DNA of 64,000 bases from Escherichia coli (GTDB taxonomy: Bacteria > Pseudomonadota > Gammaproteobacteria > Enterobacterales > Enterobacteriaceae): the NCBI RefSeq assembly GCF_036507355.1, contig NZ_AP027877.1, one strand, 5' to 3'. The position numbers and the translations under genes are program-made. Below the pieces are notes generated by a model. The model made no database searches and was not told where the DNA came from. It saw only the letters and a list, made by a program, of their open reading frames with translations. This document shows, in pieces, positions 37,653 through 38,261 of the stretch. The stretch's first letter is position 1; every line of letters starts with the position of its first letter.

Positions 37653-38261
37653 ATGAAATACAGGCTACTGATCCTCAGTCTGCTGGTTTCTGTGCCTGCA
37701 TTTGCCTGGCAACCACAAACCGGCGACATCATCTTTCAGATCTCTCGCTCATCGCAAAGTAAAGCCATCCAACTGGCGACCCATTCCGATTACAGCCACA
37801 CCGGTATGCTGGTGATGCGTAACAAAAAGCCCTACGTTTTTGAAGCGGTCGGCCCGGTGAAATACACCCCGCTCAAGCAGTAGATTGCCCATGGTGAAAA
37901 GGGCAAATACGTTGTTCGCCGCGTTGAAGGCGGACTCAGTGTTGAACAACAGCAAAAACTGGCGCAAACGGCAAAACGTTATCTCGGCAAACCGTACGAT
38001 TTCAGCTTCTCATGGAGCGACGATCGCCAGTACTGTTCGGAAGTGGTGTGGAAGGTTTATCAGAATGCGCTGGGAATGCGCGTGGGCGAACAGCAGAAGT
38101 TGAAAGAGTTTGATCTCAGCAACCCGCTGGTCCAGGCGAAGCTCAAAGAACGCTACGGCAAAAATATTCCGCTTGAGGAAACGGTAGTTTCACCACAAGC
38201 CGTTTTCGACGCGCCACAACTCACCACGGTTGCCAAAGAGTGGCCGCTGTTTTCGTGGTGA
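37653..38261 (+). pseudogene. yiiX: yiiX (permuted papain-fold peptidase) with in-frame amber codon at codon 77
   Basis: ORF of 76 codons ends at TAG 37881-37883; same frame stays open 126 more codons to TGA at 38259-38261, giving the expected 202-codon length. Confidence 0.75.

Follow-up and report, generated by a model that had tools for sequence, protein, structure and literature searches.

YiiX of Escherichia coli is a circularly permuted papain-like enzyme of the NlpC/P60 type, and in this family the histidine and the polar residue of the triad precede the catalytic cysteine in the polypeptide chain (Xu et al. 2011, PMC3142127). The catalytic cysteine of YiiX is Cys128, and Tyr115 forms a hydrogen bond with a fatty acid that is held in a hydrophobic S1 tunnel (PMC3142127). 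Later papers still regard the bacterial YaeF/YiiX enzymes as poorly understood and group them with lipid-directed enzymes. YebB (NF008547) is a paralogous permuted papain-like enzyme of the same fold family; the protein encoded at the locus described here reached a YebB score of 88.5 bits, with a cutoff of 227, and the yebB gene does not lie in the window, by which we mean the whole stretch of 64,000 nucleotides of E. coli DNA that was analyzed. For the kind of DNA change reported here, the closest described cases are the classical amber (TGG>TAG) mutations and the lineage-specific nonsense pseudogenes of E. coli and Shigella, in which a single transition leaves the gene otherwise intact and the product truncated.

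The locus in the window resembles that of intact E. coli YiiX in its chromosomal place, in its synteny (metJ-yiiX-rpmE-priA), in its DNA (99.3% identity), and in encoding all catalytic residues. However, codon 77 is TGG in the intact gene and TAG here, and the predicted product is a stub of 76 residues that lacks the nucleophile. Compared to classical amber mutations, there is no mechanistic difference, and the W77am allele is confined to one clone. We are confident in reading the locus as a nonsense allele of yiiX, a core gene of E. coli; by this reading, the allele arose recently, causes loss of function, and is restricted to one clone. The change is an ordinary one, a TGG>TAG amber mutation of the textbook kind in a core gene that is already known, and nothing in it falls outside known feature types. 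The coordinates are compiled in Table 1.

Table 1. Features of the yiiX locus and its surroundings (positions in the window)
Feature	Position	Strand	Evidence
Predicted yiiX pseudogene (W77amber)	37653..38261	+	Translation, PF05708, NF007458, 2if6, 99.3% DNA identity
Premature amber TAG; base 37882 is A, G in relatives (TGG, Trp77)	37881..37883	+	Alignment, 57-mer scan
Residual 76-codon ORF with predicted signal peptide, His49, and Glu64	37653..37880	+	Product deposited as BED24353.1
Intact part of yiiX, presumably no longer translated, with Tyr115 and Cys128	37884..38258	+	Residue positions, ORF list
metJ, intact upstream neighbor	37152..37469	+	100% identical to metJ of 14EC033
GC-rich hairpin with flanking A run and T run	38283..38309	.	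RNA fold of -15.4 kcal/mol, z = -2.1

Reading frame and identity of the yiiX locus

The yiiX frame opens with an ATG at 37653 and, as read from the sequence and its translation, meets an in-frame TAG at 37881 to 37883, which is codon 77. Beyond this stop, the same frame continues through 125 sense codons to a TGA at 38259 to 38261. The locus as a whole thus comprises 609 nt, that is, 202 codons plus the stop codon, which equals the length of the annotated RefSeq yiiX coding sequence (CDS). A first-pass annotation of this DNA had claimed an in-frame TAG at codon 77, a frame that stays open to 38259, and a total length of 202 codons, and the sequence and its translation confirmed all of this. 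The computed chance that a random frame stays open over 125 codons is about 0.0025; the case for one interrupted yiiX gene rests on homology and not on this probability.

Indeed, the DNA is 99.3% identical, without gaps, to intact annotated yiiX, and the nearest genomes differ from it by four mismatches. When codon 77 was read as tryptophan, the protein matched the Pfam family PF05708 (Peptidase_C92) with an E value of 1e-48 and a score of 166 bits (cutoff, 27) and the YiiX equivalog of NCBIfam, NF007458, with 357 bits (cutoff, 216). Residues 19 to 202 of the repaired protein are identical to the crystallized E. coli YiiX (PDB 2IF6). The 609-bp yiiX query found a match on the chromosome of 5,424 of the 5,426 complete RefSeq E. 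coli genomes, and at least 80% of the query was covered by the match in 5,422 of the 5,426. Every match listed carries the annotation "yiiX: YiiX family permuted papain-like enzyme." Hence, yiiX is a core gene of E. coli.

With codon 77 taken as tryptophan, the protein belongs to the YiiX family by the cutoffs of both NF007458 and PF05708. Moreover, the permuted catalytic set is encoded in frame in its entirety (His49, Glu64, Tyr115, and Cys128), and the gene occupies the orthologous chromosomal position between metJ and rpmE-priA. The one property of the family that the locus lacks is an uninterrupted frame with a complete domain, due to the TAG at codon 77. Because the frame is interrupted and all other properties of the family are present, the locus, judged from its sequence, counts as a YiiX family pseudogene, not as a functional gene of the family.

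The list of open reading frames (ORFs) divides the region into an ORF of 76 amino acids (37653 to 37883) and an in-frame ORF of 72 amino acids that starts from a GTG at 38043. If the locus was naturally composed of two genes, one for a short secreted peptide and one for a separate downstream protein, gene callers would be expected to split it into products of 76 and 72 amino acids, as they do. However, all annotated relatives examined have the ortholog as one CDS of 609 bp, the two pieces match different, complementary stretches of a single Pfam profile (positions 2 to 59 and 112 to 165), and the crystal structure has one domain that extends across both parts. Furthermore, the 72-amino-acid piece has neither the catalytic cysteine nor the histidine nor a signal peptide. 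Orthologs that end at codon 76, which the first-pass annotation had named as the finding that would speak against its interpretation, are excluded, since the gene is full length in 5,422 of the 5,426 genomes and is one 609-bp CDS in the records listed. We therefore regard a two-gene arrangement as refuted by the ortholog comparison, and the probability that we leave to it is practically nil.

Origin, authenticity, and rarity of the amber codon

Codon 77 is TGG in all three relatives that were aligned (14EC033, O157:H7 TR01, and ECNB21-M121), and the orthologs thus have a sense codon that is one mutational step away from the stop. TGG or CAG had been expected as the ancestral codon, and the ortholog alignment shows that it is TGG. 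As read from this alignment, the lesion is a single G>A transition at 37882 that converted TGG (Trp77) to TAG. The exact 57-mer centered on the TAG base was absent from all 4,076 complete RefSeq E. coli genomes that matched the probe. At gene positions 345 and 348, the base agrees with that of O157:H7 TR01, and no insertions or deletions were found in the alignment of yiiX with its relatives. A second private change was suspected at gene position 321 (window position 37973), which has a synonymous A, but this was ruled out, since 516 complete genomes share it.

The nonsense change is thus the sole private substitution, and the rest of yiiX is a mosaic of common polymorphisms. The term "recent" is justified because the stop is the only change in yiiX that is not found elsewhere and nothing else is degraded; the alignment is free of gaps, the other differences are shared, and no further disabling changes are present. 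These observations support, at the level of the sequence, the view that yiiX in this strain is a recent nonsense pseudogene and not a degraded remnant, which is what the first-pass annotation had proposed, with a need for amber suppression as its alternative.

A difference of a single base from all relatives is also what a sequencing or assembly error would produce, in which case the true genome would have TGG. However, the exact 76-amino-acid product is deposited as BED24353.1, "hypothetical protein VEE46_41210 [Escherichia coli]," as found by an exact-sequence look-up in public proteins, and this GenBank/DDBJ record derives from a complete chromosome. The product was present on four contigs, the longest of which is a chromosome of 4,643,937 bp. 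In addition, a Logan contig of 13.8 kb from SRR17480487 was 100% identical to positions 37576 to 47883 of the window (10,308 bp), TAG included. This contig is common to two samples, and two further similar places were found in the Logan assemblies of Sequence Read Archive (SRA) runs. The TAG allele has thus been seen more than once: at least two data sets contain it, and the assemblers differed. Because of this recurrence, a random base-call error is unlikely; substitution errors at one site are not expected to recur across read sets and assemblers. The absence of frameshifts and stops from 50 other genes (see below) argues against a low-quality assembly as well. At the assembly level, BED24353.1 and the Logan assemblies show that the allele is real, it is probably not an assembly artifact, and we consider a sequencing or assembly error very unlikely.

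Because identity is perfect over 10 kb, the carriers belong to one clone. They may represent one strain or clone that was sequenced repeatedly, and the mutation may have arisen in a laboratory stock. Exact scans with a TAG-bearing 38-mer gave no match in the GTDB species-representative genomes and none in the JGI metagenome contigs. The W77am allele is rare.

Another Logan contig, L005 from ERR13194199, was rejected as an independent carrier, since it ends after codon 76 and contains no TAG. The contig is 1118 bp long, with the locus at 891 to 1118, and stops exactly where yiiX codon 76 is complete; the polymorphic codon would begin with the next base. If the sample was mixed, a branch of the assembly graph near a single nucleotide polymorphism may have caused this break; alternatively, the break may be coincidental.

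Consequences for YiiX, possible suppression, and possible loss in other strains

The G>A change at 37882 turned Trp77 into an amber codon, which would give rise to a loss-of-function allele restricted to one clone. Translation would stop after 76 residues, assuming that the TAG terminates in vivo. In the numbering used for the window, the stop falls between two pairs of residues, with His49 and Glu64 before it and Tyr115 and Cys128 after it, and the 76-amino-acid product spans only positions 2 to 59 of the 166-position Pfam profile. A signal peptide consisting of residues 1 to 18, with cleavage between AFA and W, is predicted because of the sequence itself and because the PDB chain matches only from W19 onward. 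The secreted stub would thus keep His49 and Glu64, but roughly two thirds of the fold would be missing, as would Tyr115 and the nucleophile Cys128. Such a stub should be inactive as a lipid-directed cysteine amidase or acyltransferase, which is the supposed role of YiiX.

Translation might also restart downstream of the stop. The first in-frame restart codon is the GTG at 38043, which is codon 131 and lies three residues beyond Cys128; a product restarted there would be expected to lack the N-terminal signal peptide as well. Because the first restart comes after Cys128 and the stop splits the catalytic residues, it appears that active YiiX cannot be made unless the amber codon is suppressed. 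The remainder of yiiX would have stayed unchanged because there was too little time for further decay, and the effect on fitness would be neutral or small.

If the UAG at codon 77 was decoded by an amber suppressor tRNA (supE, supF, or supD type) or passed by substantial readthrough, yiiX would still work, and full-length YiiX with Gln, Tyr, Ser, or Trp at position 77 would be produced. Suppression predicts a downstream frame that is perfectly intact, which is what is found. However, a young mutation accounts for it just as well, given that yiiX has no private change other than the stop. The stop is followed by an A; UAG-A is not among the strongest termination contexts in E. coli, where the fourth base has an effect on termination. 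On the other hand, basal readthrough would yield only trace amounts of protein, and wild isolates rarely have efficient suppressors, which are costly. No tRNA gene is present within the 64-kb window, and a literature search for natural amber suppressors gave nothing usable. Taken together, a yiiX gene that still works by suppression or readthrough is highly improbable. We give slightly less credence still to the more specific case of a natural isolate that has a suppressor tRNA or unusually high UAG readthrough, in which yiiX W77am would be a conditional allele with reduced expression.

A recent nonsense allele could also have been favored by selection, and this would add to the preferred explanation, not replace it: loss of yiiX would be adaptive in some niches, and the allele would be one of several convergent knockouts. 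Indeed, other truncated forms of YiiX are found among public proteins (clusters P0003, P0004, P0015, and P0036). A form of 196 amino acids that ends just before W197 is present on 105 contigs, a form of 94 amino acids that is frameshifted after residue 84 is present on 97 contigs, and a form of 149 amino acids is frameshifted near residue 131. A frameshifted form from Shigella dysenteriae is also included in the public clusters, and the 72-amino-acid C-terminal ORF, which is created by any upstream disruption, was called on 222 contigs. However, full length is kept in at least 99.9% of the complete genomes, the TAG allele is confined to a handful of assemblies, and some of the truncated records are partial sequences at contig ends or come from long-read assemblies of reference collections, in which homopolymer indel errors are common. 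Because of these partial sequences and possible indel errors, the number of real, independent losses of yiiX is uncertain. Therefore, the public truncated forms were not taken to prove convergent loss; several are contig-end partials, and indel errors of long reads may account for others. A literature search found no phenotype of yiiX loss. An adaptive loss is possible, but we consider it unlikely. If yiiX was lost repeatedly across E. coli and Shigella, this would hint at a niche-dependent dispensability of the gene. From its fold, the paralog YebB might take over part of the role of YiiX where YiiX is lost.

The deposited protein BED24353.1, now a "hypothetical protein," should be flagged as a yiiX pseudogene. 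The strain would be a natural yiiX null and could help to find a phenotype of this uncharacterized periplasmic lipid-binding enzyme. Otherwise, the allele is of minor importance, as a clean example of how one mutational step produces a nonsense pseudogene that is specific to a clone, here in a core gene with a poorly understood function.

Neighborhood of yiiX and the rest of the window

The gene order metL-metB, metJ-yiiX, rpmE, and priA of the relatives is identical in the window. The rpmE gene (38322 to 38534, minus strand) is convergent with yiiX, and the hairpin between them (Table 1) looks like a bidirectional intrinsic terminator that is common to yiiX and rpmE, as judged from RNA folding. 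The terminator scan missed this hairpin, which was found by reading of the sequence and by folding; a promoter scan detected no sigma-70-like site upstream of yiiX. Because the terminator-like hairpin and the convergent rpmE follow yiiX, the stop should be without a polar effect on any downstream gene.

For a check of the neighbors, each annotated CDS of strain 14EC033 was extracted and compared with the window. All 50 of the 50 other genes shared with 14EC033, which comprise the M20 aminoacylase gene and sthA through fieF, were free of gaps from start to stop and had no internal stop. This agrees with the first-pass annotation, which gave every backbone gene except yiiX the expected length. 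Among the backbone genes shared with 14EC033, yiiX alone is broken. Because all 50 neighbors are intact, the break in yiiX is an isolated event, and neither a general decay of the genome nor a poor assembly accounts for it.

The intergenic region between metJ and yiiX (37475 to 37625) is filled with palindromic repeats of the REP/BIME type. Positions 37499 to 37623 are absent from O157:H7 TR01, and a similar copy of this repeat is present at 24336 to 24437 (87.5% identity over 104 bp). The short-read Logan contig breaks within the repeat, at 37576. In O157:H7 TR01 (L002, 1754 to 2609), yiiX is followed by a frameshifted IS1 transposase gene and a fragment of an RHS element and not by rpmE, which suggests that TR01 has undergone a rearrangement immediately after yiiX.

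Several other parts of the window differ among E. coli genomes. An insert of about 3.5 kb between metF and metL (29700 to 33250) encodes a PTS EIIC-EIIB protein (30085 to 31434) and a LacI family regulator (31516 to 32538); 14EC033 lacks this insert and has only a gene for a hypothetical protein of 81 amino acids there, and only some E. coli genomes cover the stretch. Two genes between rraA and zapB (46763 to 48186) code for proteins of 224 and 208 amino acids without a Pfam match; they are 99.6 to 99.7% identical in 14EC033, where they are annotated as hypothetical. The cpxP-cpxR-cpxA genes, which would be expected past fieF (59709 to 60611, minus strand), are not in the window; the sequence enters instead the end of a P2-like prophage at 60700 to 64000, for which the annotation of RefSeq relatives gives ogrK, a phage integrase, and Cox/HTH regulators. 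An HTH ORF of this prophage end is located at 63260 to 63553. The prophage end is interrupted by an IS30 family transposase ORF (61423 to 62424), which a relative annotates as "IS30-like element ISApl1 family transposase" and which has 36 places in the genome of that relative.

None of the complete RefSeq E. coli genomes is closely similar to positions 30000 to 46000 over their full length; the best matches were about 97.7% identical over 84% of these 16 kb, and only three records had any place with at least 99% identity. The identity of single genes to those of 14EC033 ranged from 96.7% (metL) and 97.2% (fpr) up to 100% (metJ, rraA, zapB, and yiiS). By these comparisons, the window appears as a recombination mosaic from a lineage that is poorly represented among complete genomes.
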